Shown piece after piece: positions 8,524 to 30,483 of a stretch of 32,000 bases of DNA. Position numbers and translations under genes: made by a program. Origin of the DNA: Candidatus Saccharimonadota bacterium (GTDB taxonomy: Bacteria > Patescibacteriota > Gracilibacteria > BD1-5 > UBA2023); assembly GCA_042852035.1 (NCBI GenBank), contig BAAFHK010000001.1, forward strand, positions 480,001 to 512,000, given 5' to 3'. A model generated the notes under the pieces. The model did no database searches. It worked only from the letters and a program-made list of their open reading frames with translations, and had not been told where the DNA came from. How positions within the stretch are numbered: the stretch's first letter is position 1; every line of letters starts with the position of its first letter.

Positions 8524-8919
8524 TTATTCTTTGGGCTGATACGCTTTCAGAACTCTTCGAACAATCTCTTTTTGTTCTTTCGTGAGTTCTTCTCGTTCGG
8601 GAATATCGACTATCTCAAGCTTATTACTATATGAGGTATGACGAGATCTGAGCCAAAAAGCTATAGCGGACATATTTCCGTCTTTCACGGCTTTGAGAAG
8701 TTGGGATTCTGCAAGGTCATTCATCATTGCCACTCATTTTGAGAGAGCTTCTCTGGAAGCCTTTGCGAATGCTTTGTCAGATTGCATCCATCGGTAGTAG
8801 GTAGATCGACCAACTCCACTTTTCTCACAAGCAATCTGTACTATCGGAGTCTTTTCGAGATGTTCGAGAAGAAGCTTCTTCTCTTGCTTTATACGATTTT
8901 GTAGTCCTGTAGAAGTCAT
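8524..8919 (-). CDS. terS: Putative terminase small subunit / HTH DNA-binding protein, 131 aa
   Basis: Track ORFs 8734..8919 and 8524..8733 are joined by a single TGA. HTH IVQIACEKSGVGRSTYYRWMQ, then DGNMSAIAFWLRSRH, which is typical of small terminase-like proteins. It sits directly upstream of terL. Confidence 0.55.
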
Positions 8920-8964
8920 ATGATTTATGAATGAGGGATGGAAGAGGATTCAGAGTCCGATGCC

Positions 8965-9759
8965 TTACCCGAGTTTGAGAGCCGTTTTTCCTGTAAGCTT
9001 TTCCCATCGTTTGATGATACGAGCTATATAGACTGGATTTTGTTCTACCATCACACAGACTCGTCAGGTTTGCTCTGAAGCGATAAGCGTGCTTCATGAT
9101 CCTCAGAAGGGATCATATACTGTGTCTCATATTCGACTCGAGTTCAATATGAGTTCACGAAGGAGAGGAATAGGCTTCATCGTAGGATGAATTGTGTTCT
9201 TGCGAACTTTTGCGAATGCAAGAACACTCTTGGATTTTCCTCAGTAGAATGCATGTTTTCCATGCCAGCCATAGGCAATGAGTTCATGCTGAGGAAGATA
9301 ATCGAGCCGTCAGATAATCGCACTATCCTTGACCCATACGATGAGCTGAGTGAACTTCCATCAGGCTCGAAGCATTCCATCTCGGAGAGCGAATATCATC
9401 TTATCAGCATTAAAGATATAGCTCGCATTCTTCTCGCTGAGGTATGGAATGATTGGTCGTAGCCATCCCTCGGTGAATCATGCGTATTCTTCATCCGACT
9501 GAAATCCATCGTTTGCTATATCCACGTGCTCTTTTGTGCTTTCATTGAATCCTACTTTTGATGCCACATAGTCGATCCCGTATGGCGGATCTGTGAGGAG
9601 GAGTTCAATCCTTTTCCCTTTGAGGAGAGCATTGAGTGACTCGGTATCTCGAGAATCGGCACAAAGAAGGGTATGTTCTCCAAGGAGAAATCTATCTCCA
9701 TAAGCAATAGAAGCATCATTAGTTGAGTTTTCTTGCTGTATTTCCTGTAAGTTGTTCAT
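8965..9759 (-). CDS. DNA methyltransferase, beta class (N6-adenine or N4-cytosine), 264 aa
   Basis: ATG 9759 to TAA (complement of 8965-8967). Motif order is IV before I: LLTDPPYGI, then HPTMKPIPLLRELILNSS and VYDPFGGSGSTLIA (two Gly from TGA). The C-terminal tail IIKRWEKLTGKTALKLG is paralogous to the upstream gene. Confidence 0.88.
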
Positions 9760-11023
9760 AACGTTTAATAATTAGGTCTATAAAAATGGGTTCATGTTCC
9801 ATGAGGACAGCTCTTCGCTTAATCTGTTCACAGGCGATGAGCGTACTTCCAGATCATCCGAAGAGGTCGATTACCGTATCTCATACCTTTGTACATCGTT
9901 TTAGGGGCTTCTCATGGAGTGTTGGAGGTTTTTCCGTTGGATGCTCATACTCTCCGACGGAGAGTCGTTTCGCGAGCCAAATATCGAAAAGGTCGATGAT
10001 ATCTTCGAGAACTCTATTTCCGACTCAAACTTCTTTATCCAGCACCTCATGAAGATTTCGAAATTCTGTAGAAAGAGAGGGTTTTCACTTCGTGCCATAG
10101 ACACATGGCTCATATGCTCGGTTGAAGGCGACATTTGGTGTAGCATTCATATTATTTTTGATCCAGAGACATACCCTGCGGGGAAGTATCCCGAGTGACT
10201 CATAGAGAGACTGTATGAGTCCGATCATGTTCGGATCACACCACATGAATATATGAGTATCTTTCTCGGCATATCTGAGTCCGTTGTGAAGAGCTTTTTC
10301 GAGGAAGAGAAAATAGTCTTCTTTGGACTTGGTATCATTTGTTTTCTTTCCACCATAACTTTTTCATTGACTCAGTCCCTTTGAGTAATCCAGTCAGATA
10401 TTATACGGAGGGTCGTAGTAGAGCATGGATATATTCGAATCAGGAGGGATTGTCTCGAAGAGTTTTCGTACATCCTCTTCATTGGTCGAGTCTCCGCACA
10501 TGATCCGATGCTCTCCGAGGGCATAGATATCTCCGAGTTTTGCCGTAGGAGTTACGATCGATTCAAGTTCTTTTTCTACATCAAATCCATCCTCCTCGAC
10601 TCCGAGCATATCGTCCCAGATTGCGGAGAGTTCGGAGTTATCGAATCCGACATCTAGAAGGAGTCAGAGATCAAGATCCTTCAGGAGTTCAAAGTCCCAT
10701 TCTCACGTATTTTGATTGAGTCTCAGATTGAGCTCTTTTTCTCGGTCTATATCAAGGTCGAGATATATGACAGGAACTTCCGTCATACCGAGCTCTTTTG
10801 CTACCTTGAGCCTGAAGTGTCCTCCGATCACGATATTCATGCGATCAGGATGTCGATTCGCAATAATCGGATCCACTAGACCGTATCTCGTGATACTTTC
10901 TTTTAGATGTTCAACTTGTTTCGCAGTATGTTTGCGAGGGTTGTACTCGGCAGGGTTGAGGATATCTGCCTTCACATACACTATCTCATGTGAGATATCT
11001 GGAACGATTTTGTCTTGTGACAT
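9719..11023 (-). CDS. ParB-like nuclease domain fused to a beta-class DNA methyltransferase, 434 aa
   Basis: ATG 11023 to TAA (complement of 9719-9721), joining track ORFs 10703..11023 and 10394..10609. ParB-N region: NPRKHTAKQVEHLKESITRYGLVDPIIA...GGHFRLKVAKELG. MTase motifs: YYDPPYNI, EHPTEKPPTLHEKPLKRCTKVGDTVIDLFGGSGSTLIA. The 3' end overlaps the next MTase start by 41 nt. Confidence 0.88.
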
Positions 11024-11142
11024 AAGAGTGAAATAAAAGGATAGAATTTGAGGTGTCGACTCCCCCTGATAAAAACAGTAGATATGTCACATAGGTCTCA
11101 AAACTATTTTTGAATTTTCCTTATTAATCCTCTATTTTAAAA

Positions 11143-11173
11143 GAAAATCCCTCAATTTATTTTGAGGGATTTT
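11143..11173 (-). terminator. Rho-independent terminator after the MBL gene
   Basis: Perfect inverted repeat AAAATCCCTCAA / TTGAGGGATTTT with a 6-nt loop, flanked by T-runs on the - strand. It lies about 40 nt downstream of the stop at 11215. Confidence 0.6.
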
Positions 11174-11214
11174 GTTAGAAAAATTGTCAATGTTTGTCAC
11201 GCAATGAGTAGCTT

Positions 11215-12159
11215 TTATAAGAACTGATTAATAATAAAATCAATATCTTGGGTTTGTATTATTTCGGTTTCGGGTTTATCAAAATCTATAAATATGTGTC
11301 CTACTGAAGTCTTCACTGCATTTTGTTGTAAAGAATTCACTCATGAGGAATAGCTTGAACTATAATATCGTGTATCCACATCGGATCGATTCTCTTCAGA
11401 ATCTGAAGTCCTAATCTTCTCTGAAATAATATTCAAACGAGTCTTTCATCATTTTATAGTCTGAAAAAGTTTTTCAGAAAATGAAGTCTGAAGTCAATGG
11501 TGAGGCGCTAAGAGGTAGTCGACTCAGTCATTCATAAGAAGACTTTTAAATTCAGGCTTATTATCAATTAAGTATTCCATTCAGGATTTGAGTATGTCTC
11601 AAGGTATAAGTACAGTTTTATCTCAAACTTTAAAAAATAAAACCAAGCTTATATTATTAGCGTATCAGGAACTGATGGTAATATCAGATTCACATATTCA
11701 TGGTGGAATATAAAAAAGTGAGATATGTGGGATATCGGAAACTAAAGGTGCGTCTTGAGTGAACGGAATTCTCGTATTGCGCATATCACTTAAAATTATA
11801 TTTTTAAGATCCGTTTCTACTCAAAGTAAGTCTTTATTTACAATATGATGATCATTTTGATCGGGATGATCATTGGGGCATGTCATATAAACTCAGTGAA
11901 AATTTTCTCTGAATTTTAGATAATCACAAACATGATCTTTATCAAGATGACTTAAAAATAGTTGATTGATTAGAAACTTTCACTTATCATGACTTGTTGA
12001 TCAAACAAGAAATTTTGATTTACTTGCCAAGGGCTTGAGAAAGTTATCTACAGGAGAGAATTCGGCGTTCGCTCATAGATCAATTAAAGCTGTTCTTCCA
12101 TCAAATTCACAGTATGCAGAATGAGCTCATCATACATTAAAAATTACCAGTTTTCTCAT
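11215..12159 (-). CDS. Metallo-beta-lactamase-fold hydrolase (ComEC-type MBL-like), 314 aa
   Basis: ATG 12159 to TAA (complement of 11215-11217). It is invisible in the standard-code track because of many TGA codons. Motifs: VIFNVGGAHSAY...LIDLGAN, FLSHLDKDHVCD (HxHxDH-like), VLIPGDIL, LLAPHHGLQ (Gly from TGA). Confidence 0.8.
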
Positions 12160-12165
12160 AAAAAA

Positions 12166-12822
12166 TTAATCGTTAAAGGAAGTTAAAACAGTATTGAACA
12201 CTAAACTCTTAGCACAACCTCTCGATCTCCATAAGAATATTAGAGATAATAGTCCAAGTAAGATGGATAGAGTAGAATGACAAGCTAATATAGCAATCAC
12301 AGAAAGCAAAAAGAATGCAGTCATCATTACTCGGACAAATAGGTAACCTCTATTTACAGTCTTTATTTCATCACTTCCTCTAACTTGCGAATATAATTGC
12401 CAGAAGTAGTGTTGAGATAAGCTGATTCATGATTGAAATTGTTTACGTTTTTTTAGAAATGGAATATCTTTGTATGATTTATCGATTTCCTGTAGCTCAT
12501 TTGGGGGGATGTTGAGTTTCTCGATAATTACTCATCTCTTTTTATCTGATATAATTGGATTTCATTTATAAAGAAAAATTTCGGAAGGTCTTAGAAATTT
12601 GAAAAAGATATCAACAATACCCTCAATTTCATGAGCTATTGTTTGAAGAATCTCTCATGTAATGAATGCTACACAAAAGAATACAAAAGTATAAAAGAAG
12701 TCCAGTTTCTCATCCAGTTCGAAAGAAATTATATCTCAAAATAAAAATAGCAGAATTCATAAAAAAAATCCTCAAGGCATGATCTTTATCATAAGTTCAT
12801 CAATAGAAAATTTATCTAACAT
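12166..12822 (-). CDS. Hypothetical membrane protein, 218 aa
   Basis: ATG 12822 to TAA (complement of 12166-12168), starting 2 nt after the upstream stop. N-terminal hydrophobic segments: GFFLGILLFLFG, FFYTFVFFCVAFITG. C-terminal hydrophobic segments: VMMTAFFLLSVIAILA, LSILLGLLSLIFLW. A soluble middle region. No family recognised. Confidence 0.6.
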
Positions 12823-12824
12823 AT

Positions 12825-13634
12825 CTAAAATAGGTTATTAAAGCTCTTGTCCTGAAATTTTATTCTTGCGGTTTCTTTTGCTCAAAAATCAAATTGAGGG
12901 TTGTACTTCTTATTTCCAAGCATTAATGGTTCTCACTCAATTTGTAAAAATTCACACATTTCTTCGACAAATCTTTCTTTTGCCTTTCGAAACTTACTTG
13001 AGGCTTGTTCGTTATCCTCCCAACTAAACTTCCTTCCACCACATATTAGAAGAAGTATTTCTCAGGATTGAGAAATAGTTTTTGTAACAAAGTCCACAAG
13101 TCACATATCAGAAATTGTCAGAAATTTTATTTGCTTTCAGCTCAAAAAAATTTCAATTCTAGAATTCTCAGGATTTTTTTCGTCATATTCTACGAGATAG
13201 AATTTTATATTTTCCCAATTTGTTCATTCTGGAAGGGGTAGTGCTAGTTTTGCAAATCCTCTCTTATGATCAAGATGATTCTCAATTTCTTGCGTATGAA
13301 AAGCCATACTTGCCTCAATAAGCTTCTCTTTCTCTTCAGAACTATGATTAGGATATTTTTCTGTAACAAATTGTGAGGCTTGAGCCCTAAGATTACTAAT
13401 GGTAGTCATTCCATTTCCTTGATAATCCTCTCATACCCTCAATGAAGTCGTCTCGACTTTAGGTAAGGATATAGTTGGGATTTGAGAAGGTATCGATGTA
13501 TGGGTGGGCACAGGAGAATGTCATACAAATCTCTCTCATGATGGAATCGATGGAGTTCGAGAAAATCACCCACCAAAAGAGCTTTGTCATCCTCATGAAG
13601 TATTGAAAAATGCTTGTCGAAAAATGCTAGTCAT
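12825..13634 (-). CDS. Hypothetical protein, 269 aa, N-terminal extent uncertain
   Basis: Open from ATG 13634 to TAG (complement of 12825-12827), in frame with track ORF 13224..13409. The N-terminal 75 aa are Gly/Ser/Pro-rich low complexity. An alternative start is the ATG at 13409. No family recognised. Confidence 0.5.
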
Positions 13635-13644
13635 AGTTTAAAAG

Positions 13645-13869
13645 TTATCCTCTTGGTGGAAATGGATCTTTCCCATAAGAATTAGAGTTACTGATCTTAC
13701 CATCTCGGTTTTGGATCTTAAGTTCGGCTCATTTATTCTGAGCAATCTCCCGAGCTCGACTCATGGCTTCTGCTTTTGTATCTGTGTGAGCGGAATCACG
13801 TTTTGCTCAAGGCGAATGAATTTTCCATCCTTCTTCGCCATTTGGGGAAACCCATACTTGATTTGTCAT
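13645..13869 (-). CDS. DUF2188-like small protein, 74 aa
   Basis: ATG 13869 to TAA (complement of 13645-13647). MTNQVWVSPNGEEGWKIHSPGAKRDSAHTDTKAEAMSRAREIAQNKGAELKIQNRDGKI matches the DUF2188 pattern as I remember it. Confidence 0.65.
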
Positions 13870-13881
13870 AGTGTGTAAAAA

Positions 13882-14490
13882 TTAGAAAGTATTACTTGGA
13901 AACGAGCGAACGAAAATTCATTGGATTCTAAAATCTTCGTGAAGAATTATTGGTTTATGTTTTTCATTGGTAGAACTTGGATTGAGAGAAATATAATCAG
14001 TATCATAGTGAATTCGTTTAATAGTTGCTTCATCATCGATAAGTGCTACAACTATTTGTCATTCTGTTGCCGAATCGGCTGAACGTACCAAAATAAGATC
14101 ACCATCATTGATTCCTTCATTATTCATAGAATCTCCTTTTGCTCTCAGGAAGAAATATTTATTCGTTCCATATGCAATTCTGGTTGATACAGGTATCTGT
14201 GCTTCTATGTTTTCTTCTGCAAGAATAGGAAGTCAGCAAGCAATCATTCATACTAACGGTACATTTATGGTATTTTCATTCTGATGGTCTTCCACTACTC
14301 AAAGAGATATCTTCCCATCATGTCTTACGAGATATCCTTTCTCTACCAAGCTATCTACAATAAGCTGTACTGAACGAGTAGAGGCATATCATAAATCTGC
14401 CTGGAGCGAACGAACAGATGGCACTGATCAGTTCTCCCGATAATACAAGCGAATTATTCCTAATGCTTCTTTTTCTTTTGGCTTTAGCAT
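13882..14490 (-). CDS. lexA: LexA-type repressor (winged-helix DNA-binding domain + S24 peptidase), 202 aa
   Basis: ATG 14490 to TAA (complement of 13882-13884). N-terminal region: EALGIIRLYYRENGSVPSVRSLQADLGYASTRSVQLIVDSLVEKGYL. Cleavage region VPLVGMIACGLPIL, with the scissile Gly encoded by TGA at complement 14233-14235. Catalytic Ser in KGDSM and Lys in ATIKRI. Confidence 0.85.
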
Positions 14491-14575: not shown

Positions 14576-17500
14576 CTAGTTATCGAATATCATCCCCATC
14601 ATTCGTCCGATATAGTCTCCATGCTGAAATATCACATGACGTTTTTCAAAGTCATCCTCTGATTCCTGTCATTTCCAGTGCTGAATAGCCTCGCGTGCTG
14701 TTACTGATATGATATAAGCGTCGAGTATGACATTCGGATCTTGGACTGGGAGTTTTTTTAGCGTCTCATGGAGACGAAGCTTCGGATTATCGAAACCATC
14801 TTCCATATTGAAGAGTCATTTTGGATCTACAAATACGATATATTGTTTCTCACCATCGATTATCCAGATTATAAAATCAGGGTAAAAATTCTGAGCCTCG
14901 AAGAATCAAACTCATTTTTTACTGAGATTTCGGAGAAGATAGAACTCTTTTCCAGCAAGGGATTCGGTATTTCTCTCATAGTAGTTCTGCATCTCGAAGA
15001 CGAATTTTCTCTCTCATTCATTGAGTGGAACAGGGGAGATCACGGCGAGTTCAGCAGGGAAGTTTTTTCCGAGGGCAAGAAGAGGACTATAGAGATGTCG
15101 ATCGAAGTGAAGTGATGTAAATCATTGAGATAACTCATGATTCTGAAATATTCCATTTTTGATCTGTCACTCGAGCTCTCGTACAGCTTGGATAATGTCA
15201 GTCTCTTCAGAAGAGACTTTCACTTCATACGAAGTGAGGAGATTGGGATGATCTTCAGGGAGAAATGAGAACTCCATCTTGTTACGATAGTAGTGTCACT
15301 TCTTCTGATTATAGAGAGCATCAAAGTAATTCTTGATCAGAGCAATCGATACATCGTTCCATGCTTTTACATTTTCATATCTTGTCTCGAGTGATACTCA
15401 CGGGATATAAAGGGTATACCATTTTGGATTCATGAAGAGTTTCTCGAGATTCTCCTTCGATATAGATACGATATTCCATGATCTATCTGCTTTGTGGCGC
15501 TCCAGCTCGAAATACATCTTTTCCCAATCGATAAATGCGAGATGTTTTTCTTCTAATATGTGCGTTTCCCTGAAATCTACACTATTAGTACTTCATCCTG
15601 TGCTTTCGATGGCTTGTACTTTTGCATACCAGTCTACTGTTACCTTAATAGTATCTTCGAAATCGAGTTCTATTTTTTCACCAGACTTCTTGAAATCAGC
15701 TCCATCTTGAATCTTGAGATATTTGAGCTTTCCGATTTCTTCTTTTTTGAAGTTATTCTTGATTGGTATGGTGATCTCGTACATATCTTCCATAGGCATA
15801 CCTTCTTCTTCGAGATATTCTCGGAATTGTTGCATATAGTCTGATCGAACTCAAAACACACATAGTGTCTCGAGAAGACTAATCTCATCTCCTCAGAGAG
15901 ATTTTTCGATGATTCCTTCACGTTTGAGATACTTGCTTCGTCTGAGCGTATGATTGTATCACTTGAGGCGTACTCATCGACCGAAGAGCTGAATAATCTC
16001 AGATCATTCACTTCTACCAATATTCATAAGTCACATCGTCGATACTCTCCAGCTCGACCATCCTTCAGTGAATTTCTTCGAACCGATGAGGATATTCACG
16101 GCGCTTCATTTTTCATTGATCTTATGGAAGAGTGACTCAGAGAAGTCCCTCACTCCAGTGATCAGTCATACAGATTCACAGAGCTTCACGAGTTCGGCAT
16201 CATCTCAGACATTGATCACGCCAAAATAATCACCATTACCAGCCTTGAGTCATATCTCTCCATCCTGTCACTTCAAGTTCTCTATATGAAGATGGGATCA
16301 TGGAGTATTACAGTTGAATATTTTCTCGAGAAAATCAGAATAGAGTCTATCGATATCATATTCACCATTTCATCGAGAGAATGATTCCTTTATAGCACGG
16401 AAATGATTACGGAAAAGTGGTCAATTCTTCCCAATAATACCATCCTGTCAGGTGAGGATATTCTTGATTGCTCATTTTGCTTTCTTTTTTTCTCCGAGAA
16501 TACTCTGGAAGAACTGCAATATCTGTATCACATCGGATACTTTAGCTTTATTCTCGGTTCGCACTGCATTTACCGTTCCTCAGACGAATATGGAGAGAGG
16601 TTTTTCTATCTGGAATTGTTTCGCGACGGTTTTCTCTTTCTCATAGATGAACATCTGCTCATAGAATGTCATCATCGATCCGATGAGATATCCATACGTC
16701 ATATTCTCATCGTCAGTATCAGATATATTGAGGATTCGGTAATCCTTACCATATCCATCCTCGTAGAAATATTTATACGAATAGTCTATAAGTACGGATT
16801 TTGAGTATTCACTGAGAAGTTCAGTTCGTTTCTTTCCGCTCGATGCATGGATAGCCTGTCCGAATGTGGCACTATACTCAAAAGAGAATCCATTTCTCGA
16901 TAGTGTTGCTCGTTTCTTTTTCCATTCTTCACCACTTGCTCCACGATGTCATTCATCGACGAGTACGAGATTATTCCCTTCGAATGACTCTATCGCGACG
17001 GTCTTATCTCCAGCCTTATCTTCGAGCTTATGGATATCGATGATATCGATAAATCCCTTACGACTCGTAGAAGATGCTCTCTTATCGAAGAGTTCTCACC
17101 AAAATCATGAATCCTTGAGTTCTTTTTCATGCTGGCGAGAGAGTCACTCATTTGGAGTGAGTATGATTATTCTATTGAGTGAATCATGCTTTTCATACTC
17201 TTCTAAATAGTGTTGATATTGGAGTATATTCATGTGCATGATGAATGTCTTACCACTTCCAGTTGCGCTCCAGAAAGCCACCTTCGAGAGTTCTTCTAGG
17301 GTAAATAGTTGAATATCCTTAAAGGCACCACCTTCTTCATCTTGGAGCTTGGTGAGATAGGTGTTCAAGTCATTTAAGAGCTTATCCTTGTTCGCGAAGT
17401 ATCGATCAAGATATATCTCAGTAAAAAGGAGAGAAAGATATTGGAAATATTTCCATCGTAGTTTTTCATGGCGCTTGCTCGATATAGTCTCTGTATGACG

Positions 17501-17749
17501 AAAAATATTCTCATCATATTTTCTGAGAAGAATTTCTGGTATCTCATCACTCTGGTAAAATCTATCGATCAGAGTACTGAGATATCGAGAATTTCACTTT
17601 TCATTCCATCATTCGAGCTTGCTATCCTTGAGATCCTTGGTCAGTGAGGCGAAGTCATTGAGCCCAAAGAGGGAAAGGAGCCATCTATGAAGTATGAGAC
17701 CATCTTTGAGTTTTATTGGTGCTGATTTTGTGGTTTTCTGTGGTGGCAT
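14576..17749 (-). CDS. Res-like SF2 (DExH) helicase with a C-terminal PD-(D/E)xK-type nuclease motif, 1057 aa
   Basis: ATG 17749 to TAG (complement of 14576-14578), in frame with track ORFs 17144..17368 and 15593..15835. About 30 in-frame TGA by hand count. Motif I: FWSATGSGKTF. Motif II: LVLVDEGHRG (Gly from TGA). Late helicase motifs: [42 protein letters not shown]. C-terminus: FYPDFIIWIIDGEKQYIVFVDPKG. Confidence 0.88.
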
Positions 17750-17761
17750 ATAAATTTTTTA

Positions 17762-19126
17762 CTAAATGATTCTTATTCAGAAAGCTTTCCTTTTTGATTT
17801 ATCTCATTCTGATTCTTTAATGAAGAAGTATACTTTTGTTCATATCTTTATCAGATTAATCAAATTATTATCAGAGTCTCTATTTAAAATAAAATATACT
17901 GATGATTTATCTTGCATTCAGATGAATCAGTTTATTCATCTCTCATTATTGTTCATTATTTTTACAACTTCTCCTTCGAATCGTTCACTTCTATTTTTAG
18001 GTATATCCTGTTGTTTGTTTAGAGATTTCCAGTACTTTATCAAGTCATGCTTTATTACATCAAAACTTTCATCTTTTACTTCACTTCATTTTATTTTTCA
18101 TGATAAATTTTGTGGAATTTTCCACCCTTCACGTTTTCTTATGAGAGAAGACAGTATATAATGTTTTTCTGCAATTTCATCTTCTTTTTCATTAATTAGT
18201 AAATCTCCAAGTAGGATCATTACTCAAACTTTAAATTCCAAATCTCCATAATTATTCATTGCACGAATAGCATATTCAAATGCCTGTTTAGTATCTCACG
18301 TTAAGACATATATTTCTGCTAATTCTTTTTCAATAAACCAATCTTTCTTTTTTTCATAAATTTTTAGAAGTTTTTCAAGTGCAAGTTCAGTATTTCAGAG
18401 GTGTTGATTTGACAGTGCGATTCTCCGAGAAAACCAGATATCATTTCAGTTATGGAATTTCTTGATTATATCCAATGCAAGTGTGGATAACTCGGAACAT
18501 TCCTCATATTTTCCAGATTCTAGAAGCGCCTTAGTATAATATCAAAACCATTTTTCTTGATCTGATGCTAATTCAACTTCCTTCTGTTTCCCTTTGATGG
18601 TTGCCTCAATCATTTCATTTCTCGTAGAGAGATTCTCATATGGTATTTGCTTACATATCTCACAGATTTGTTTCCAATGTCACTTTTCATCATGGTTATC
18701 CAGTATTGATTTAAATACCTGGCTAAACGCTGATTGAGAAAAGTCATCTTTAATATTGCTTATATTTTTTAAGAAAAGAGTAATATTATTATCACTTATC
18801 AGATTTGAATCACCGATGTCTGATTTATTTTTAATAGATGCTTTGAGTTCATCGAAAAGTATCCATCCGTAACTTGTGAGGATTCTACTTGATAGCTTCT
18901 CATAAATATTTATAGAGAATTCGTCAAAGAATGAATGGGTAAAACGATGGTTCTTTGTTTTTCTAAGTGCAGTTAGTATGTTCGCAATCATATACTCATC
19001 TTTTCTTATCTCATCTGCGAAATCCGATTTATGAGACTTGAAATATGAAAGTACCTCATCAAAATTTTTATCTTTGATAAGTGATCAAATATGCGAACTA
19101 AAACTATAGTATGTATCCATAATCAT
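17762..19126 (-). CDS. Hypothetical protein: helical-repeat (TPR-like) body + C-terminal OB/cold-shock-like domain, 454 aa
   Basis: ATG 19126 to TAG (complement of 17762-17764), in frame with track ORF 18680..18991. It starts 5 nt after the NERD-helicase stop and ends 12 nt before the Res-like start. Repetitive helical region: YYTKALLESGKYEECSELSTLALD, ELALEKLLKIYEKKKDWFIEKELAEIY. C-terminus: RFEGEVVKIMNNNERGINGFIGMQDKSSVYFIL...IGTKVYFFIKE. The domain calls are my inference. Confidence 0.6.
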
Positions 19127-19131
19127 GAAAG

Positions 19132-22020
19132 TTATCCTAAAATATTCAAGACTTCTTGAAACTTATTCCATATTGCAATATCAGAATAATATAAAGCTTT
19201 TATACTTATAATTTGATTCTTTCCATTATATCGACACTCAATATCCAATTCTTGCTCATCTTGATATAACTTAATGAAATCTTGGTAATTATTCTGACCG
19301 ATTTGAACGATACGGAAATTATGATCGGAAGCAGTCTCCCATTTTTGATATATTGTTCGTTTCCAAATATCTTCCACATCATCGAAGTTATATTTTATAT
19401 TTCATAAAACTTTATTAAGTTCATCAAATAGCCATTTTTCTCAATTTTTGAGGATAGGAAGTTTGAACTTTCATTTTTTATCAAATCCAAATGCTAATGT
19501 GGCAAGTTGTGTTCATTTCATGAATTGGATATGAAGCTCCCATCATATGACTTCAGTTGACTTCAGTGAATAATTTGAATCTAGATGTTTCCGAATAAAT
19601 ACTATAAATTCTTCTATCTGATCTTCTTTTCTTATATCGTCCCCTCATTTTACTTGCATGATATATCTTTTTACTCGCTTATCTGCACTAGCAGCATCTT
19701 CTATGAGTAACTCATCTAATGGAGATATCGGTGAGTAGTTTATGAGATAAAGATTTTTTATTGTACGAGATATACCAGTATAGAGCCACTTAAAGTATTC
19801 AATATTATTCTTTCATAGTTCATACTTCAGATCAAATATAACTGTTTCCCAATGAAATGAAAACGTTTTATGCACGGTCATTGCCCATCAATATTGTAGT
19901 CGAAGAGTATTTTTATATTTCCCAAACTTAGAACTTGGATCTTTTCTGAGTTTATACTGGATACTTAACTTGAATTCCTTTTTCACATCTTTCTCAAGTC
20001 TCTTTTTTTCTTTTTCCTTTGTTTCTATTTTTCATTTTACCTTTTCTCATTGCTCTTTTTGTAAAGATAACTCGTCTATTTCATGAACTACGTTAATATA
20101 ATTCTCATCTTTTAATAATTTTTGGTATTCTTCAGATTCCTCGAATTTTCATCCTTCTTCTTTTATGAGTCAATTAAGAAAGATATGATAAGCCTGTTCC
20201 TCATCTTTTGATATATCACCTTTCTCACTGAGAAGACTATTCTCAAGTATTTTTACATTTACACTACTATTTGCTCTTTCTCACTTAAAGCTTACATCTC
20301 TAAAATAGAGTTTGGTTTTTCTGCCACTCTTTGTTTCTATAAGGAATTCCTCTCTTGGTTTAATATCTGTTATAGTTCACATCATTCATTTATCGATTTT
20401 ATATACAGAAGCAAATAAATCATTGCTTGTAGTCTTCATTTGATTCATCGTAACTACTCTATCATTGATATTGATAGAATCTCACGAGTGAAAAATATTT
20501 TTCTTTATCCACTTATTTTTTAATACAACATCTTGGTTTCAATATGCTAATATTACCGTATCATAATTTTCTACTGACATTCTTTCCTTGAGTAAATCTA
20601 TGGTAAAATTTTTGTCATCATTTTTCAGATGATGTATTGTATTTACTACCTCTGGAATCTCCATTTCTGAATATACATCTCAGACGATTTTTTCTTTTAG
20701 ATATGACGTAACATTACTAATAGCTGTTTTACTTTTCTGGATTCTTAGTTCTCTCATTGTTGGGATAAAGCCATAAGAATCATGAATATATTTTCAATTA
20801 AGTGCAGATTTTTCATCTTGAATAAGATAAGGATCTCAAATAAAAATTACCTTAAAGGCAGGTTTTTGCTTTATAAAGTCAACGAAGTCATGAAGAAGTC
20901 TTCCAGTTCAAAATCGAACATCATCAGACTCAAATAAAACATCACTTATAAGATGCGCTTCATCTATAATATATACACACTTATCAGCGTTATCATTCGT
21001 ACCTACTCAAATCAATTCTTTATCTATTGATACATCTTCTTGATCTCATTCATTATTTGTATCGCTAGTTTTTTCATGGAGTCATCAAGAGTATATATAC
21101 GAATAGAGACTATTCACTTTATATCAGCTTGCTTGATTGGTAAGACTATGAGCAACTCTTTGTGAAAATGCAAGAACATCAACCTGCTCATATCAAAATC
21201 TGTAGCTTTCATCTATGATATCCGAGATCAAGAAGCTTTTTCAGGTTCATGTCATTCAGGAAAGGATAAATATGTGAGATTCTGATTTGAGAAACTCACC
21301 AATATCTGATAACACTATCTTTTGATCATCAGTCAACTGCATATTGCTTTTCTCTGTAGAATTTTTTTCATTTGATGGTGTTCATACTCAGTATTCTTCC
21401 TTTGATTCATATGCATCAGCCATAAAATATAGCTTGAATGCATCAAATCCATCTTTTGATAGACATACAGATTCATCCTTTATGGATATAAAATCATTTA
21501 TTTTTTCTAGATAATTTGATTTATCTACAATCCCAAAGAAGTTTGTTTGATTCCCAGGTATATGTCAAACGAGTTCTATGATTTCTTGAAAGCAAACAAT
21601 TCGACGAACTCTATGTGGATCAAATATGTTTGGAAGAGTAATATGTTTTGATATGTGATCTCTATACAGTCATGTGAGCTTCCTTTTTTGATGGAAAAGC
21701 TGATCAAAAGGACTTAGTCTCGCTCCTCATTTAATATAATCTCATGTTTTTTCGCTTATCCATGCCCCTGTTTGGAAGTCAGATTCTTCTGGTAGCATGA
21801 CTTTTCCGCTATAGTTTTTGAAGTCTATAATACAAACAACATGCTCTGTTATAAGTAGAGCATCGATTTGTAGCAATGGTGCTTCATCTACTTCCGAAAA
21901 TCATATGAGTAAGCCATCTTTATTATGTTTTTCAAAAAGCTTTGCGAGATTATATGAAAACTCCCTAAAGAATGAGTTCTCATATCACCTTGAGGCTGTT
22001 CATTTTCTGATTTCAAGCAT
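19132..22020 (-). CDS. NERD nuclease-related domain fused to an SF1 (RecD/UvrD-like) helicase, 962 aa
   Basis: ATG 22020 to TAA (complement of 19132-19134). I checked it line by line as one open frame. NERD region: QIDALLITEHVVCIIDFKNYSGKV...SPFDQLFHQKRKL. Walker A: ILSGMTGTGKSF, with all three Gly encoded by TGA (complement 21256-21258, 21247-21249, 21241-21243). Walker B: CVYIIDEAHLISD. Also VIFIGDPYLIQD, and the C-terminal helicase motif GWAMTVHKTFSFHWETVIF...LYTGISRTIKNLYLI. An extra roughly 150-aa tail is unassigned. Confidence 0.85.
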
Positions 22021-22050
22021 TTGATGAAGTGGTTACAAAGTAATTTTCAA

Positions 22051-25000
22051 CTATATCTCGAACATCCTCTTTTTGAATTCTTCTTCGATGAGTATGACTT
22101 TCCATGTCTGTTCTCCTGTCTTCATATTTTCCACACTGTTATCTCCATTCACATAGATACGATCGAATTCTGTATCGAGAGGATTGTAGGCGCTCTTCTG
22201 GAGGAAGTTATTGAGATCATCATTGCTATGTTTCTCGATATTTCTCCAGACTATGAGTGTGCGTTCTCCATCGAGTGTTCTTCACGTCACGACACGGTAT
22301 CCTCGAGCCTCATAAGTATGTTCGACGACGAGCCCGATGAGATAATTGAATGTCTCGACGAGATCCACACGAGTGACACGAGTTTCATTGTCTCTCGTGA
22401 TACGCATCTCGAAATCAAATGGATGAGCAAAGTGATCCACAGAGAGGATGCTTCCCTGAGATTCTGTATCGAGCATATACTGGAGCATATAGTCTTCTCG
22501 GAATTCTGCATTTTCTGGAGCGAAGAGGACTCATTGCTGAGTTTCTGATCTCTGGAGTTTCAGGTTATTGAGCGCATCTTCATAACTCTCGAGTCTGAGA
22601 TACTTGAATGCATGAGATGATCCCTTTCTCGAAACTGGCTTTCATCATTTCCAGTCCTCACTATAGATAACCTTCTGGATACGAGGCTTGGTAACAGTAT
22701 TGAAATACTCTCCCATCTCTACGAGGATATATTTTCTCTTTCCCATATCTCCACCATCTTTTGTATCTTCACGATTTAAATTGATAACTGAGTGTCAGGT
22801 AGTTCCAGATCATGCAAAAAAATCAAGAATCAATCAAGTAGGTTTATTATTTAGTCATGCATCAATACAGTCTTTAACTGTATGTATTGATTTAGGATAA
22901 GTAAATAGACTTTTTCAGAACATTTCATTCACTACTACACTTCAATAACTATTTGCTGAATACTTTGCTCACGTCCATACTGTCTTATAATTGAATTTTA
23001 TTTTGTAACGAATAATGTCCCAAGTTCACTTCTTTTTATCGTATTCTGCTTTTAGTTCATCCTTAATTGACTCTACAGTTTGTCTAGCAAAAGTCCACTT
23101 CCTTTCTTCTCCTTGTGCTCAAATTGGGTAAACCTCAATAATTCCATCATCCTTCTGCATATTTATTCATGAGGGATGAAACTCATCAGGAGATACCTCT
23201 CAAAATCATATAATTTCTCAGTTTTTTATATAGACTGGATAAAAACAATTTGCCGCATCTGTTCTTAAATGCGATCAGATGGATACATTTCTCAATGGTC
23301 TAACATCTGGATTATCAATACGATCTTCTAATCAGATGAATTTTCATGGTTTTGGATACACGAAATATGCAAATTCATGTGTAAATGAAAAATTTGATCA
23401 CTGTTGACCTGTTGGATTGTGTACAACAGATATACAATTCTTCTCGTGTTCAGGATAATTCTGTGATAAAATTTGCCCTAATACTTCCTGTTCCACTTCA
23501 TCAATTGCTACAATAAGGACACCATTTCTATCTTCAATATTCTTAGCAATTCAGATTCTATTATCCATCAAAGAGAGCCAAGATGAGTGCTTAAATGTAT
23601 TTTTATATACTATCTCAGATGACTGAGCGTTATAAGGAGGATCGATATAGATGCATTTTACCTGTTCTCTGTATCTCTCTTGGATGAGATTTAGAGCTTG
23701 AAAATTCTCACTATTAATTATGAGACCATCTAGCCATTCATCGAGATTATGATTTTCGCTGATTTCTCCGATGAGTTTGTTTTTCCATGATTCATCGAAA
23801 TGCTTAGTATCGAGTACGAGATATGGATTGTTCTCGAGGAATTCACGGGAGAGGGGGCGAGAAAATCCATCGATCTCATCGATAGCAAAAAGGGAGATCC
23901 AGTCATCTATCTGAGCCTCATTGGTACGGATATCATCATAGTATGCCTCATCGATACGGTCGAGTGTGATACAGTATCCTGTTTCGACGACCATCTTTTT
24001 CTTCAGGAAGAGTTTTTTCTGGAATTCTTCGAGACTTGAAAGGAAAGTGATGACCTTTTCTCCGATCAGCTTCACAGCCTTGATCATCGCGAGCGATGCG
24101 ATGAATGTCTCTGGAGAGCGAGTATCGATATCATCGATGTAGAGAATCTCATTCTTGATATAAAAATCGAGCTCTCTCGTGAGGAATCCATAGAGATCCT
24201 TGTGGATGAAGTAATCAAAAGTGTTTCGTTTTACATAGTCATTGATATGTCTCTGGATGAGAGTACGAGACTTATCTTTCTCTGTAGGTGATGGAGAGAT
24301 ACACTCAGCGTACTCACTCGGGATAGTATCTCGGATAGTAGTGAAAGCTTCAGTAATGAGAGCATCTTGCTTCACTCACTTATCCATCGGTTCATACATG
24401 AAGTAGACATGAAGCTCACCATCCTTTTCTTCGATGGTGTGTGCTGGTTTTCCTTGTTCTATGGATGAAGGTGATGGTGTATATATCTTGAACTTTCTCT
24501 CCTTGTCTCATTGAGCCTTGTTGTTGTTTTGCTCGGTACTTGCCTCGACGAGTGTGAATACGACAGATTTTCCGCTTTCAGTTTTGAATCGGTAATTCTT
24601 AAAAAATTCACTTGTCTTTATATAGTACTGATCAGCATTTGCCCAGTGAAGCTTCACTTCTTCTCACTCGTAGGGGATAGCGTAGACATCTTTCTTGTAT
24701 CGCCTCATCGAGATGAAGTCTCCAGAATCAAAATATCGTCTGAAAAAGCTCGTCAGGTGAGAAAATACTTCATTCTCGAGAGCAGTGAGATCACTTGAAT
24801 TCGCCATTTTTTCTCTGAGTTCTCGTACTTTTGGGAGACTCTCAGGATCGGCACCAAGAGCTTTAGCATTCGCTATGGCATCATGAAGCTCTTTTTCGAG
24901 GCTTCACTTATCAGAAGTTCCTGCAGATTCGAGAATAGTCTTCACTTGAGGGATGAGATCCTTCTCGAGAAAAGTCTCTATCTCATTTCGACGAGAGTTC

Positions 25001-25092
25001 ATGATACGGTAGATACCGAAATCAAGATCAGCCTGATCGAGCATGAAGCATTCTCTGAGTGTGGCTATGAGGCGCTGGTAGTTTGATTCCAT
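22051..25092 (-). CDS. Large Mod-like beta-class DNA methyltransferase (N6-adenine/N4-cytosine type), 1013 aa
   Basis: ATG 25092 to TAG (complement of 22051-22053), in frame with track ORFs 24904..25092, 23551..24375 and 22282..22488. Motif [12 protein letters not shown] is at complement 23632-23643 (about residue 484). [14 protein letters not shown] and motif I LILDFFAGSGTTGHSV follow about 280 aa later. The long N-terminal region [32 protein letters not shown]... and the C-terminal region ...[19 protein letters not shown]... are unassigned. Confidence 0.9.
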
Positions 25093-25112
25093 AGAGAAAA
25101 GTAAGATGGTGA

Positions 25113-28082
25113 TTAAACGATGGTAAAGCGAATCGTGAAGAGATGTTCTTCGGTGATCTTCTCGTGTTTTCGAGCCTTCAGGATATCGATCATTCTGTCT
25201 CGTTCCGCGAGGATCTTATCTTCGAGTTCGAATATCTCACGACGGAGCTTTTGCTGTTCTTTGGTGAGAGTTTGGATTTTTTGCTGGAGTTCGAGCTGAT
25301 CAGTGGGATTTTCTGATTTTTTTGCCTCTCGAGTGTGCTCTTTGATTTTTGCCTTCGTTTCCTTGAGGGCTATTTCGAGAGATTTAGTATGATCATCAGC
25401 CCATTTTTCCAGTTTTTCGGTCTCTTCTTGGAAGTAGACGGCATTTCTCTTATCAGTTCGTTCTAGGAGCTTCTGTCGTTCTTCGCTGTAGGATTTACTG
25501 ATACTTTCTCCGAGAGGACTATCTCATGAGATCACTCTTCACTCTTTTCATCATACTGAGAGGATTTTCTCTGAGAGTTCTTGATCGAGTATCTCTCCAG
25601 TGTCATTGATGGTCGTGAGGACAAGTATATCTTCGCTTTCGAAGGCATCGATAGAGAGCTTCGTGAGTCTCATCCAGCCACTTTTTCCGACGAGGTTTTT
25701 CACGAGTGATATATTTTTTCCGCTCTGAGTATAGTCAATGGTGATTTCTCTTGATTCAGTCTGATATCCGAGACATTCAGTGATCACGTTTTCAGCGAGA
25801 GGATGTCCGATACGATAGATATTCGCATCTTCGATGTTTTTCCCGATACGATATGGTCAGAGGAATATCTTTTCTGGTGAGTATGGATTCTTTTTGAGTT
25901 TGAACGAATAGTCTTCAGTGAACTCTGCTTCTTCAGCAAGTGCGAACTTGGTAACATTCCAGAGCCAGTTCTGGTATTTATCGAGTGAGGCATCAGCTTC
26001 ATTCTTTCGAAATCGGAGCTTTTGAGCTACTTCTTCATCGAAGTTCGAGAGAAGTGTTTGTTTTGCTGAATCAATAGTTTCAGTGATTTCTTGATCGAGT
26101 TCGAGCTGGAGTTGATCGAATGCATGACTGATCTCATTCTCAGTACGACAGTCACCATAGATCTTCGCGATACGGCGCTCGAGATCCATACCATTTTCGA
26201 TACTTCCGAGTACTTCATCGGAAGCTCCGAAGACACCTTCGAAGAGCTTGAATTTCTGAGCAAGGAGTTGATATACTCTCTGATCTGCTTCGTTTGATTT
26301 GTTGAGGAAGTTAAGGACTACGACATCAGACTTTTGACCATATCGATGACATCTTCCGATTCTTTGTTCGATACGTTGTGGATTCCAGGGGAGATCATAG
26401 TTGATGATGAACGAACAGAACTGGAGATTGATACCCTCAGCGGCTGCTTCAGTGGCAATCATGATGATTGCTTCATCTCGGAAATGTTCGACGAGAGCGG
26501 CTCGCATATCTGCTGTCTTTGATCCTGTGATTTTATCTGTTCCAGCATGTTTTTCGAGCCAGTCTTTGTATACTTTCTGGGATTCAGGATCAGCATTTGA
26601 TCCATTGAAGAGAACTATCTTTCCAGCGTATCCATTCTCCTCGAGGATACCCTTCACATAGAGCTGAGTTCTGGTGCTTTCTGTAAATATAAGTGCTTTC
26701 TTGAGTGGGAATTTATGATCCTCACTTCTTTGGCGTATCTTCTCGAGTTCTTCGAATCCCTTATTAAGGGCAATCGTGAGTTTTTCTCACTTAGAATTTT
26801 TCGATATTCCTTTTGCGAGACTCTCACACTGAGTGAGAAATCCGATTTCATCTTCGATTTTCGGAATATCGAGGAGTGTGAACTTCTTTTTCTTCTTTCC
26901 ATCCTCTCATACTTCTTCATCTTCCTGTTCACTCCATTCCTCAGCAAATTCATCATATTCTTCGAAGTTGGTAGAGAGGGTATCTATTAGACTCATATCC
27001 ATCTCTGGAAGCCGTACTTCGAGTGATTCTGTTTTAATAGTATCGATGAGAGTATAGAGCTTGTTGATGAGCCCTGTAAATGTATCAGAGATGGCATAGG
27101 TAGATGATGCCATAAGTCTTCTCATGATGAGTTCCATGAGTGATCTCTGGCTTGCTGGGAGGGCATAGAGCTCTTCTCGTGAGAGATAATCTGAGAGCAT
27201 CTCATAGAGTTTTTGTTCGTCTGGAGTCTGATAGAATTCTTCTACGAGAGCGATACGATTGGTATACTTGATATATTCGAGTACTTGTCTTCTGAGTGTT
27301 CTCTTGCATACAGAACGAAGTCTCGCCTTGAGATCATCGAATGCTCCAGTATCAGAAGTATTTTCAGCTCGTGAAAATTGGGACTTAAAACTCTTCTGAT
27401 CACCAAATACATTATCATCAATAAAACCTACGAGACCATAGAGTTCGAGGAGTGAATTCTGAAGGGGAGTGGCTGTGAGGAGTACTTTTGGTCTTCCCTC
27501 GAGCATTTCTTTGATAGCTCGAGCGATTTTGTTTCATGGCTTATAGACATTACGAAGGCGATGTGCTTCATCGATGACGACGAGATCCCATTCGATAGCT
27601 TTTACATATGCTTCTTTTGAGCGAACGAATTGGTATGATGCTATGACGATATTTTCCTGTATGAAAGGATTAAAATTTCACTTTTTTGTATTCTCATTGA
27701 ATGATTTTGATTCGAGAATAGTGGAACTCAAGAAGAATTTATCTTGGAGTTCTTGATTCCATTGCTTTCTGAGATTTGCTGGAGCAATGATGAGGATTTT
27801 TCTTTTTCGTTCTGCCCATTTCTGAGAGAGAAGGATTCATGCTTCGATAGTTTTTCCGAGTCATACTTCATCAGCGAGGATAGCTCACTTCGATAATGGT
27901 GACTGGAATGCGAAAAGAGCCGCTTCTACTTGGTGCGGATTGAGATCTACTTGTGCATCGAAGAGCGAGGCAGTAAATTTATCGAGACTGTTTGACGGAC
28001 TTCGCTTCGAGAGCTCGTGGGCGAAGTACTTGGCATGATATTTTGTAAAATTATTCACGATCTGAATTGTATAGAAAATCAT
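25113..28082 (-). CDS. SNF2-family helicase/translocase, 989 aa
   Basis: ATG 28082 to TAA (complement of 25113-25115), joining track ORFs 27885, 26907, 25857 and 25551. 12 in-frame TGA by hand count. Motif I: ILADEVGLGKTIEAG (Gly from TGA at complement 27861-27863). Motif II: LVVIDEAHRLRN, LLTATPLQNSLLELYGL. Helicase-C: INLQFCSFIINYDLPWNPQRIEQRIGRCHRYGQ. Coiled-coil C-terminus. Confidence 0.92.
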
Positions 28083-28419: not shown

Positions 28420-30483
28420 ATGCAACAGCTCGTCAATATCAACAAGATTTTCAAGAATAAAATCTTCCGAATTCCAGACTACCAAAGATGATACGCCTGG
28501 CAAATCCGACAACTCAAAGACTTTTGGGAAGACATAAACTCTCTCGAAGAAGGGAAGAATCATTATACAGGAGTTATCTCTCTTGAAGAAGTAAAGAAGG
28601 AAATATGGGAGCAATGGCACGAGGATAAATGGGTGATTGAGAATAAGGGATATGATGTATTCTTTGTGGTTGATGGACAACAAAGAATGACGACTTGTGT
28701 AATACTTATTCAAGCCATTCTCGATGTAGCCAAAACACTGCGTGAAAATACTTATGAAAATAATGAAGATTTTGAACTTTGTGATACAAAACTTTCAGAT
28801 ATTAAGAGAGATTATACAGTCATAGAAAAAAGTAATGGAATACAGCGATCTTATATTTTTGGTTATGAAAAAGATAACCCGAGCTATGAGTTTCTCAAGA
28901 CGAAAATATTTAATGAGCACTCTTCTTCCAATCAGTGACAAGAAACGATATACACCCAGAATCTCGAGAATGCAAAAAAGTTCTTTGTAGATAATCTCCT
29001 TGAGATTCCTGAAAATGAACGACTCGAAAAACTCGAGGTCATATTTCGAAAAGTTACAAAAAATCTCCTCTTTAATGAGTATGTTATCGAAAGTGATATC
29101 GATGTATCGGTAGCATTTGAAACCATGAATAATCGAGGGAAGAAGCTCAGTGATCTCGAACTTCTCAAGAATCGTCTCATTTACCTTACTACATTATTTT
29201 CTGTAGATCAGTCAGATAAAGATGAACTCAGAAAACGCATCAATGATGCTTGGAAAGAAATATACTTCCAGCTTGGACGAAATAAGGAGAATCCTCTTAA
29301 TGATGATGACTTTCTGAAGGCTCATTGGACTATGTACTTCAAATACAGTCGAAAAACAGGAGATGATTATATTCACTTTCTGTTAGATGATTACTTTTCT
29401 CCAAAACGAGTACTTAAGGAAATCGATGTGGCTATCAAGATAAAAGAAGCTCAGGAGGTTCGTGATGAGCTTCTTGATGATGTCGAGGAGGATATTCCAC
29501 TTGAAACATCTCAAAAAGAAAAGAAAGGATTAGAAATCGGGGATATATCTCTCTTTGCTGAAAGTATACAAAAAGCCTCTAGTGCTTGGTATGATACCTA
29601 TAATCCCGAAACAAATCAAAGACTTACGAGCGATGAAAGAAAATGGCTCGATCGACTAAATCGACTCTGAATGGGATATTTTCGACCTCTCATCATGAGT
29701 TCATTTCTCTCGAGAAATACAACAGCAGATGAACGAGTTTTATTATTCAAAACCATAGAAAGGTATATATTCATTGCGTTCAGACTTACACAGATGCGAT
29801 CCAATTATGGAAATAGTGAGTTTTATAATCTGAGTCGAGATCTCTACTACGGTAATACAACTATTGCGAATATTGTAGAAGCTCTCGAGGAGCGAATCCA
29901 ATTTTCATTCAATGACGATGGATCGTTTAAAATCAATGCTTTCTATGATTTTATCAGCAATAAGTTCAGATTCTGAGCAAAAACTGGATACTATTCTTGG
30001 GGATGACTTCGATACTTTCTCTACGAGTACGAACAATATCTTCTCGAATCTTCGAAGAATTCTACTGCAAAAATCACATGGGAGAAGTTTACCAAAGAAC
30101 AGGATATGATATCTATAGAGCATATTCTTCCTCAAACACCCGATAAATCTTGTTGGTCACATTTTGTATCACAGTATAGTCCTGAAGAAATGAATTACTT
30201 TACGAATACTCTCTGAAATCTTCTCGCTCTCTCACAACCAAAAAACAGTAGTCTCCAAAATGATTGTTATGAAAATAAGCGAGTTGACGGAGAAAAGAAT
30301 CGATGATATTTCAATGGATCATATTCGGAATGTAGAGTTGCTGAGACTTATAAGGAATGGACTCCTTATTCTATAAAAGAGCGAGGACTTGAACTCCTCG
30401 GATTCATGGAAGAGAGATGGAATATTAATCTCGGGGATGATACTACAAAGATGAAGTTATTGAATCTTGAGTTTTTAGATTAA
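28420..30483 (+). CDS. GmrSD-family Type IV (modification-dependent) restriction enzyme-like protein, DUF262 + DUF1524, 687 aa
   Basis: ATG 28420 to TAA 30481-30483 in frame 1, joining track ORFs 28633, 29125 and 29671. DUF262 signature: FRIPDYQRGYAW (Gly from TGA 28489-28491) and FVVDGQQRMTT. DUF1524-like His-Me region: ISIEHILPQTPD...TLGNLLALSQPKNSSLQN. Confidence 0.9.

Follow-up and report, generated by a model that had tools for sequence, protein, structure and literature searches.

A TOTE pair nested in an SNF2-associated, Type III-like restriction cassette of a recoded Gracilibacteria genome

Do the genes of a tightly packed operon encode one machine, or do separate systems share a transcript? 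The question is raised by five consecutive genes, G1 to G5 (Table 1), on the minus strand of a 32,000-nucleotide (nt) stretch of a Candidatus Saccharimonadota genome (Gracilibacteria in GTDB; contig BAAFHK010000001.1, positions 480,001 to 512,000), which is called the window here. Read with TGA as glycine (code 25), they encode an SNF2 ATPase, a large Mod-like methyltransferase, a helicase with a NERD nuclease domain, a TPR-OB protein, and a Res-like helicase-nuclease. A first-pass annotation, made from the letters alone, did not recognize this gene set and saw in it a new combination of three DNA motors and two nuclease-type domains around a single methylase. The locus, however, does not represent a novel type of immune system; what is new is the host-cargo combination of a known architecture. 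G1, G2 and G5 appear to form an SNF2-associated, Type III-like restriction-modification (R-M) cassette, here the outer cassette, whereas G3 and G4, here the inner pair, match a named conflict system, TOTE. We consider it likely that the operon nests two separate defence modules, each functioning independently of the other.

Two gene sets with separate distributions

In the outer cassette, G2 is a beta-class methyltransferase (Pfam N6_N4_Mtase, 1.7e-21), with DPPY at residue 484 preceding FAGSG at residue 759, and is matched over residues 3-990 by the PADLOC model MTase_III (PDLC03646, 1057 positions; 1.9e-233). Its nearest solved relatives, by sequence (PDB entries of Mbo45V, 6.6e-24, and EcoP15I Mod, 6.9e-17) and by predicted fold (6k0w, 5.8e-16; 4zcf, 6e-14), are Type III Mods: Mbo45V, H. 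pylori Mod and EcoP15I Mod. G5 matches Pfam ResIII (2.6e-10) and PADLOC REase_III (PDLC03654, 1.8e-199), and its C-terminal PD...DPK motif is invariant across 22 homologues; the ResIII match and the invariant motifs bear out its description as a DExH helicase with a C-terminal PD...DxK nuclease. With Type III relatives for Mod and the expected motifs in Res, the first-pass reading of the two genes as Type III R-M logic stands.

The likeness to Type III R-M systems such as EcoP15I extends to gene order, Mod preceding Res; to the Mod itself, a beta-class enzyme with DPPY before FxGxG; to the build of Res, an N-terminal DExH motor of superfamily 2 (SF2) followed by a C-terminal PD-(D/E)xK nuclease; and to the PADLOC Type III models, which match at about 1e-200. 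Unlike the Type III enzymes, the window Mod carries ~450 extra N-terminal residues, which are conserved across the Mod family. The first-pass annotation had put this Mod at about 1.5 times the usual Type III size: it is indeed 1.5 times the length of EcoP15I Mod but of normal length for its own family, since the 120 best of 8000 G2 homologues are all ~1000 amino acids (aa) long (about 990-1040) and align with ~100% of the query. The N-terminal region, given as ~480 aa in that annotation and ~450 aa here, stays unassigned after a whole-chain Foldseek search of G2, in which the methyltransferase core dominates the matches. Res differs as well: G5 has no PDB match by sequence at E<=0.01, and its predicted fold (predicted local distance difference test, pLDDT, 71.7) returns generic SF2 matches with low template-modelling (TM) scores, HsdR (Type I) being the closest restriction enzyme and EcoP15I Res falling outside the top 50 fold matches of this model. 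Finally, Type III systems have two genes, mod and res, whereas an SNF2 gene precedes Mod in the window and in 45 of the 53 loci surveyed for it (homologues of 957-1004 aa), and the junctions between the genes often hold cargo.

G1 carries the Pfam domains SNF2-rel_dom (2e-38) and Helicase_C (5e-20), and its best PADLOC model is DrmD (PDLC02619, 2.4e-199). The NCBIfam model DrmD_b (NF038318), however, aligns with residues 39-730 only and scores 658.8 bits (1.3e-197), below the curated cutoff of 950, and G1 is rejected as a DrmD equivalog. The proposed DrmD/DrmMI pair of class 1 DISARM thus survives in part: G1 is nearest to DrmD and a methylase gene comes next, but G2, an N6_N4 beta-class rather than a PglX-like enzyme, has no DrmMI match. 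Class 1 DISARM as a whole is rejected, as Pfam and PADLOC find no DrmA, DrmB (DUF1998) or DrmC (PLD) match in the five proteins, in agreement with the earlier statement that the locus fits neither DISARM nor the canonical two-gene form of Type III R-M. The BREX-related Hma/DUF499 system also combines an SNF2 helicase, a methyltransferase and a third large ATPase, and is a frequent host of embedded genes. G1 matches HmaA at only 3e-49 (2e-199 for DrmD), G2 and G5 have no HmaB or HmaC match at E<0.01, and G5 matches ResIII and not DUF499; because HmaC is a DUF499 ATPase (PMC8565338, PMC12839542), the cassette is not Hma. BREX is rejected on its missing defining genes.

The survey of reference loci comprised 70 for the Mod-Res junction, 53 for the presence of SNF2 and 50 with both junctions visible. 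The G5 family counts ~7950 homologues at ~48% identity, and at least 514 species genomes, which span most bacterial phyla, encode a G5 relative. Mod and Res lie side by side (<=100 nt) in 39 of the 70 loci, and contiguous SNF2-Mod-Res units with Res directly after Mod occur in Pontibacter, Thermoanaerobacter and close recoded relatives of the window. No G3 or G4 homologue was found in 80 reference-genome loci (L012-L091). Judged by this distribution, the outer cassette is a very widespread contiguous three-gene unit, separate from the inner pair; no name for it was found in the literature searched, whose coverage was poor for subscription journals. In eight of the 53 loci (L031, L032, L036, L044, L046, L051, L057 and L090), no SNF2 homologue lies within at least 3.5 kb upstream of Mod-Res: a two-gene form of the cassette thus exists, and SNF2 looks dispensable.

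The inner pair has kin of its own. Pfam recognizes in G3 a NERD domain (1e-6), AAA_30 (3e-7), UvrD_C_2 and, at residues 895-957, a C-terminal TBP-TOTE domain (PF22721, 1.7e-10; 40.8 bits against a 27-bit cutoff) that the first-pass annotation had missed. G3 matches PADLOC PDC-M16A at 8.9e-83; its catalytic residues (D53 and D66-F67-K68 of NERD, K261 of Walker A, D353-E354 of Walker B) are invariant in 24 family members, and the same full architecture recurs in 443 homologue clusters. G4 matches Pfam DUF7017 (3.5e-7; 30.7 bits, cutoff 27.5), the PADLOC model PDLC01170, described as TPR fused to cold-shock-like OB (3.5e-45, residues 86-447), and PDC-M16B (1.1e-7); the Pfam S1CSD-TOTE model has no match to G4 at E<0.01. 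By its TBP-TOTE domain and its PDC-M16A and PDC-M16B matches, the middle pair is recognized as a described system, the PADLOC candidate PDC-M16, and so does not belong to an unrecognized set. TOTE, for TPR, OB, TBP and Effector, denotes conflict systems that were named by Aravind, Iyer and Burroughs (2022; cited in PMC12458937); no paper using "PDC-M16" as a text term was found in the literature searched. The TALON/ARMADA systems have NERD nuclease, TPR-CSD and TBP components in common with the inner pair, but TALON is defined by a YprA-family helicase (PMC12458937), and TALON/ARMADA is rejected: no YprA/DUF1998-type match was obtained for any of the five.

In Ignavibacteria, Patescibacteria and other lineages, the TPR partner lies directly downstream of G3 homologues, with no flanking SNF2-Mod-Res. 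Of 83 other TOTE loci, most of them from a metagenome scan, none has a G2 or G5 homologue, and one has a distant SNF2 gene. The flanks of stand-alone TOTE loci are heterogeneous (133 Pfam families in 108 open reading frames, ORFs), and defence and integrase genes recur in them only to a slight degree. The window pair is like the stand-alone pairs in its order, effector then TPR-OB partner, and in its near-zero spacing; it is unlike them in that another system's Mod and Res enclose it and that its genome reads TGA as glycine. The partner itself comes in two sizes, a short form of ~400-480 aa and a long form of ~850-876 aa (L001:12945-15551, L108, L120, L121, L127, L171). G4 (454 aa) is of the short form, whereas some relatives have a partner of ~870 aa with an extra S1CSD-TOTE-1 domain; this domain is found in L001, the sole annotated long-form partner.

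Turnover at the cassette junctions

Gene-neighbourhood comparison finds the outer trio and the inner pair each occurring apart from the other, and the five-gene order only in the window's own lineage: in the window, in L006 and in L172, the last being the same locus sampled elsewhere (99.3% nucleotide identity). Among cassettes with an SNF2 protein 94-96% identical to G1, the Mod-Res slot has three states. It is empty in L007 (SNF2 94% and Res 92% identical to those of the window), where Res lies directly after Mod, as it also does in L009; it holds the TOTE pair in the window and in L006, with G3 82-86% identical between the two; and it holds a single 486-aa AlbA_2+HATPase_c_4 gene in L173-L176. 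Composition sets the inner pair apart as well. Its GC content is 0.30 (G3 0.306, G4 0.295) vs. 0.39-0.42 for G1, G2 and G5, its GC at third codon positions (GC3) is 0.24-0.25 (G3 0.236) vs. 0.39-0.40, and TGA makes up 65% of its glycine-type codons vs. 27-46%; the same GC split between inner and outer genes is seen in L006. As both gene sets use TGA as glycine, each would come from a code-25 donor or have long resided in one. Taken together, the states of the slot and the compositional island identify the inner pair as a recent insertion into the Mod-Res junction, and the slot as one that is reused.

These data bear directly on the reading of the five proteins as a single integrated machine, a new system in which three motors and two nucleases would be arranged around one methylase. 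The tight operon, the catalytic motifs intact in all five proteins and the same five-gene order in L006 are what such a machine would display. Against it stand the confinement of that order to the window's lineage (L006, with L172 being the same locus), relatives whose outer proteins are 92-94% identical but which lack the pair or carry another gene, the differing composition of the two gene sets and the large separate distribution of each. The distribution data have already largely refuted this reading, and we rate it very unlikely. The claim of five-gene novelty falls for a reason that the first-pass annotation had itself named as counting against it: the middle pair is absent from L007 and L009, and another gene takes its place in L173-L176.

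Blastn matches of L006, L007, L009 and L173-L176 to the window all end at about 14583/14589 and 28046/28049, and the flanks are unrelated. No obvious repeats or target duplication were seen at the window junctions, and the spacers there show no relation to the 38 nt between Mod and Res in L007/L009. In L173, a AAGAAAAGTTACC-like motif occurs three times in the 126 nt that separate the AlbA_2/HATPase cargo from Res (L173:10362-10489) and might serve regulation or recombination at the slot. Related cassettes adjoin genes for large serine recombinases/resolvases (L006:1664-3963, L007:1645-3987, L009:12-1676, L173:14075-16048), and a small HTH_3 gene lies just upstream of SNF2 in L006 and L007. 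A mobile-element carrier shared with the window is rejected: the window serine recombinase is 23-27% identical to those by the related cassettes, and the window lacks the HTH_3 gene. Variation is found within the outer genes, too. Over its first 541 residues, the Mod of L007 (L007:6969-9962) shares 91% identity with G2, but only 74% over the whole protein, consistent with specificity swapping; cassettes that are nearly the same in other respects seem to have swapped the half of Mod in which the target-recognition region lies.

Filled junctions are common in the wider survey. Extra genes of 0.45-4.6 kb are present in 31 of the 70 Mod-Res junctions, and more than 400 nt separate SNF2 from Mod in 13 of 50 loci; at least one insert is found in 30 of the 50 loci with both junctions visible, and both slots are filled in 11. 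Nearly all cargo ORFs (61 of 64) are co-oriented with the cassette. They include AAA_21+DUF4276 pairs (HEC-01A/B, 1.8e-141 and 1e-66), PHP-SMC ATPases (Ppl, 1e-92), DUF1016/YhcG nucleases (PDC-S02, 2e-128), AIPR (AbiU), OLD (Old) and GmrSD-like (HEC-05) proteins, as well as Fic, RhuM, DUF3800 and VapBC-like pairs.

This arrangement resembles embedded defence as described by Payne, Hughes, Fineran and Jackson (2024; 10.1101/2024.01.29.577857). In both cases, a methylation-based system has defence genes set between its own genes and in the same orientation, with the families HEC-01, HEC-05, PDC-S02 and Old in common. In Hma, 62.7% of systems contain embedded genes and 96.7% of these are co-oriented, values similar to the occupancy and co-orientation of the cassette (30/50 and 61/64). 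The hosts treated there are Hma, BREX, DISARM and Type I R-M, an SNF2-Mod-Res Type III-like host not being among them in the text consulted. PDC candidates were themselves defined as cassettes lying within BREX, DISARM or Type I R-M systems ("guilt-by-embedding"; 10.1101/2024.01.29.577857), hence the candidate status of PDC-M16. In the window, the inner pair is on the same strand as its host, at gaps of 30 and 12 nt, and both the host without cargo and the cargo without host exist elsewhere. The counts thus indicate that nesting is a general property of the SNF2-Mod-Res cassette and that it matches the published pattern.

Some embedded systems act as backups, e.g., in PrrC-EcoprrI-Stp and as BrxU in BREX (10.1101/2024.01.29.577857), and this precedent suggests a closer coupling in the window. 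TOTE might be held inactive by the Mod/Res/SNF2 complex, or monitor it, as PrrC does with EcoprrI, and would fire once a phage anti-restriction factor disables the complex; the two modules would then give one two-layer response. Tight co-oriented packing, with gaps of 5-30 nt, fits such a guard, as does the persistence of the insert in both the window and L006, two of the lineages sampled, at the G3 identity given above. The slot, however, takes many unrelated cargos, and the other TOTE loci (83 of 83) have neither a G2/G5 homologue nor a fixed neighbour; the pair therefore cannot in general need this R-M. We regard coupling of this kind as unlikely and keep to two modules that function independently.

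That both modules serve defence is itself a prediction, and SNF2/RapA-like and SF1 (superfamily 1) helicases also act in transcription and repair. The cassette could on that ground be an epigenetic or DNA-repair system, with a housekeeping helicase-nuclease as its inner pair. Such roles are hard to reconcile with the patchy phyletic distribution, the recombinase and mobile-element genes adjoining the cassette, the GmrSD gene next to the operon and the known defence families that fill the cargo slots; moreover, every profile match is to an R-M or defence model. A non-defence function is highly improbable.

Genetic code, transcription and surroundings

Under the standard code, long ORFs (>=150 aa) cover 7.5 kb in the window, as compared to 55 kb with TAA and TAG as the sole stops. 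Alignment columns opposite TGA are mostly glycine in standard-code homologues (at least 80% glycine in 16 of 33 columns for G5 and 15 of 39 for G3), and TGG columns in the same alignments are tryptophan, which indicates that TGA is glycine and not tryptophan in the window genes. Recoding, inferred in the first-pass annotation, is thus supported both by homologue columns and by ORF coverage. Its corollary, that standard-code pipelines would have shattered the locus, is contradicted by public records: for both G3 and G5, NCBI has an identical, intact protein from a metagenome-assembled genome of Candidatus Altimarinota (Gracilibacteria), on a 750-kb contig, and the code applied in public annotation is therefore already the correct one. 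Retranslation with TGA as a sense codon, followed by Pfam and PADLOC searches, confirmed the main domain assignments of all five proteins, in which the catalytic motifs are intact (GLGKT/DEAH in G1; DPPY/FxGxG in G2; D...DxK, Walker A and Walker B in G3; GSGKT/DEGH/PD...DPK in G5).

The ORF coordinates reproduce exactly the reported gaps of 20, 30, 5 and 12 nt (G1-G2, G2-G3, G3-G4 and G4-G5), all five genes being on the minus strand. Such gaps leave no space for terminators, so that all five genes are probably co-transcribed; a single transcript is most likely, and the first-pass call of one tightly packed operon is upheld on the gap sizes.

A GmrSD-type Type IV restriction gene diverges from the operon and is not part of it; L172 has the same neighbour, and together they form a small defence island. 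On the other side, the region 5227-14490 looks like an integrated element (Table 1). No direct (attachment, att) repeat of at least 16 nt derived from tRNA-Gln was found in the window; one 14-mer is probably due to chance. Among three low-GC ORFs of this region, the one at 11215-12165 (317 codons) has the strongest preference for TGA in the window (17 of 19 TGA+GGN codons) and contains an HLDKDH-type motif that might point to a metallo-hydrolase fold.

Table 1. Features of the operon and its surroundings (positions in the window)
Feature	Positions	Strand	Basis or remark
Five-gene operon	28082-14576	-	consecutive ORFs, readable only with TGA=Gly (code 25)
Nucleotide-homology block shared with related cassettes (mobile unit)	14583..28049	-	blastn, flanks unrelated
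G1, SNF2/RapA-like ATPase, 989 aa	28082..25113	-	first gene of outer cassette
G1 motif I GLGKT	27849-27863	-	sequence motif
G1 DEAH	27561-27572	-	sequence motif
G2, Type III-like Mod, 1013 aa	25092..22051	-	outer cassette
G2 DPPY	23632-23643	-	sequence motif
G2 FAGSG	22804-22818	-	sequence motif
G3, TOTE effector, 962 aa	22020..19132	-	inserted cargo
G3 NERD nuclease	21589-21876	-	residues D53, D66-x-K68
G3 SF1 Walker A	21235-21249	-	sequence motif
G3 DEAH	20953-20970	-	sequence motif
G3 UvrD_C_2	19741-19890	-	Pfam
G3 TBP-like domain	19150-19338	-	PF22721
G4, TOTE sensor-type partner, 454 aa	19126..17762	-	inserted cargo
G4 TPR/DUF7017 array	18095-18526	-	Pfam
G4 C-terminal cold-shock/OB-like tail	about 17765-18004	-	PADLOC TPR-CSD model
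G5, Res-like SF2 DExH helicase-nuclease, 1057 aa	17749..14576	-	last gene of outer cassette
G5 GSGKT	17246-17260	-	sequence motif
G5 DEGH	16946-16960	-	sequence motif
G5 C-terminal PD...DPK nuclease motif	14816-14884	-	PD-(D/E)xK type
GmrSD-type (DUF262+DUF1524) Type IV restriction gene	28420..30483	+	GmrSD_N 4e-30, GmrSD_C 1.2e-18
tRNA-Gln	5227-5301		within putative integrated element
Large serine recombinase	5463-6881	-	putative integrated element
Terminase-like gene	6965-8476	-	putative integrated element
N6_N4 methylase	8965-9759	-	putative integrated element
ParB_N-fused methylase	9719-11023	-	putative integrated element
Three low-GC ORFs (GC 0.30-0.35)	11215-13637	-	no Pfam match
LexA/S24-like repressor	13882-14490	-	putative integrated element

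Predicted action and significance

In the outer module, Mod would methylate host sites and so mark self DNA, its target-recognition region probably lying between DPPY and FxGxG. The Res-like protein would couple its DExH motor to the PD-(D/E)xK nuclease for ATP-dependent cutting of unmethylated incoming DNA, with the RapA/DrmD-like SNF2 protein as a putative accessory motor. In the inner module, the TPR-OB protein G4 is probably the sensor of a cue from the phage, either nucleic acid or protein, and would then license the NERD-SF1 helicase-TBP protein G3 to degrade DNA. The TOTE cargo would be an independent second layer of immunity beside R-M, and the neighbouring GmrSD gene would cover modified DNA. 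If the five genes form one transcript, the cargo would be co-regulated and co-transferred with the R-M cassette.

Several observations weigh against this scheme. SNF2 is usual but dispensable, being missing from eight of the 53 Mod-Res loci. "Type III" describes a logic rather than close kinship, since the predicted fold of G5 is nearer to generic SF2 proteins and HsdR than to EcoP15I Res. Promoter and terminator scans of the window give counts equal to shuffled expectation, i.e., at chance level, which leaves the gap sizes to argue for a single transcript. The functional independence of the modules is argued from their distribution, the anti-phage action of both is predicted, and no functional report on TOTE/PDC-M16 was found in the literature searched.

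It is possible, as a tentative proposal, that SNF2-Mod-Res is a pan-bacterial defence system of three genes, as yet without a name, that serves as a platform for cargo. Mod and Res each count about 8000 protein clusters; in about 60% of loci, interchangeable defence modules, co-oriented with the cassette, occupy its junctions, and cargo is exchanged even among cassettes whose SNF2 proteins are 94% identical. In a stronger version of the proposal, the cargo may be tied in its function to the host R-M, as a backup of the PrrC kind. The window is the first case seen of this cassette with TOTE, in a code-25 episymbiont lineage, and it adds an SNF2-associated Type III-like cassette, very common and apparently unnamed, to the hosts of the published embedding pattern. 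The near-identical series of cassettes with the slot empty (L007), filled by TOTE (window, L006) or filled by AlbA_2 (L173-L176) is a natural set on the dependence of cargo on host R-M, and the compact TOTE/PDC-M16 pair is a candidate for the first functional test of TOTE. For the recoded Gracilibacteria, the locus means that organisms with tiny genomes stack R-M, TOTE and GmrSD, the predicted layers of their defence, within about 16 kb.

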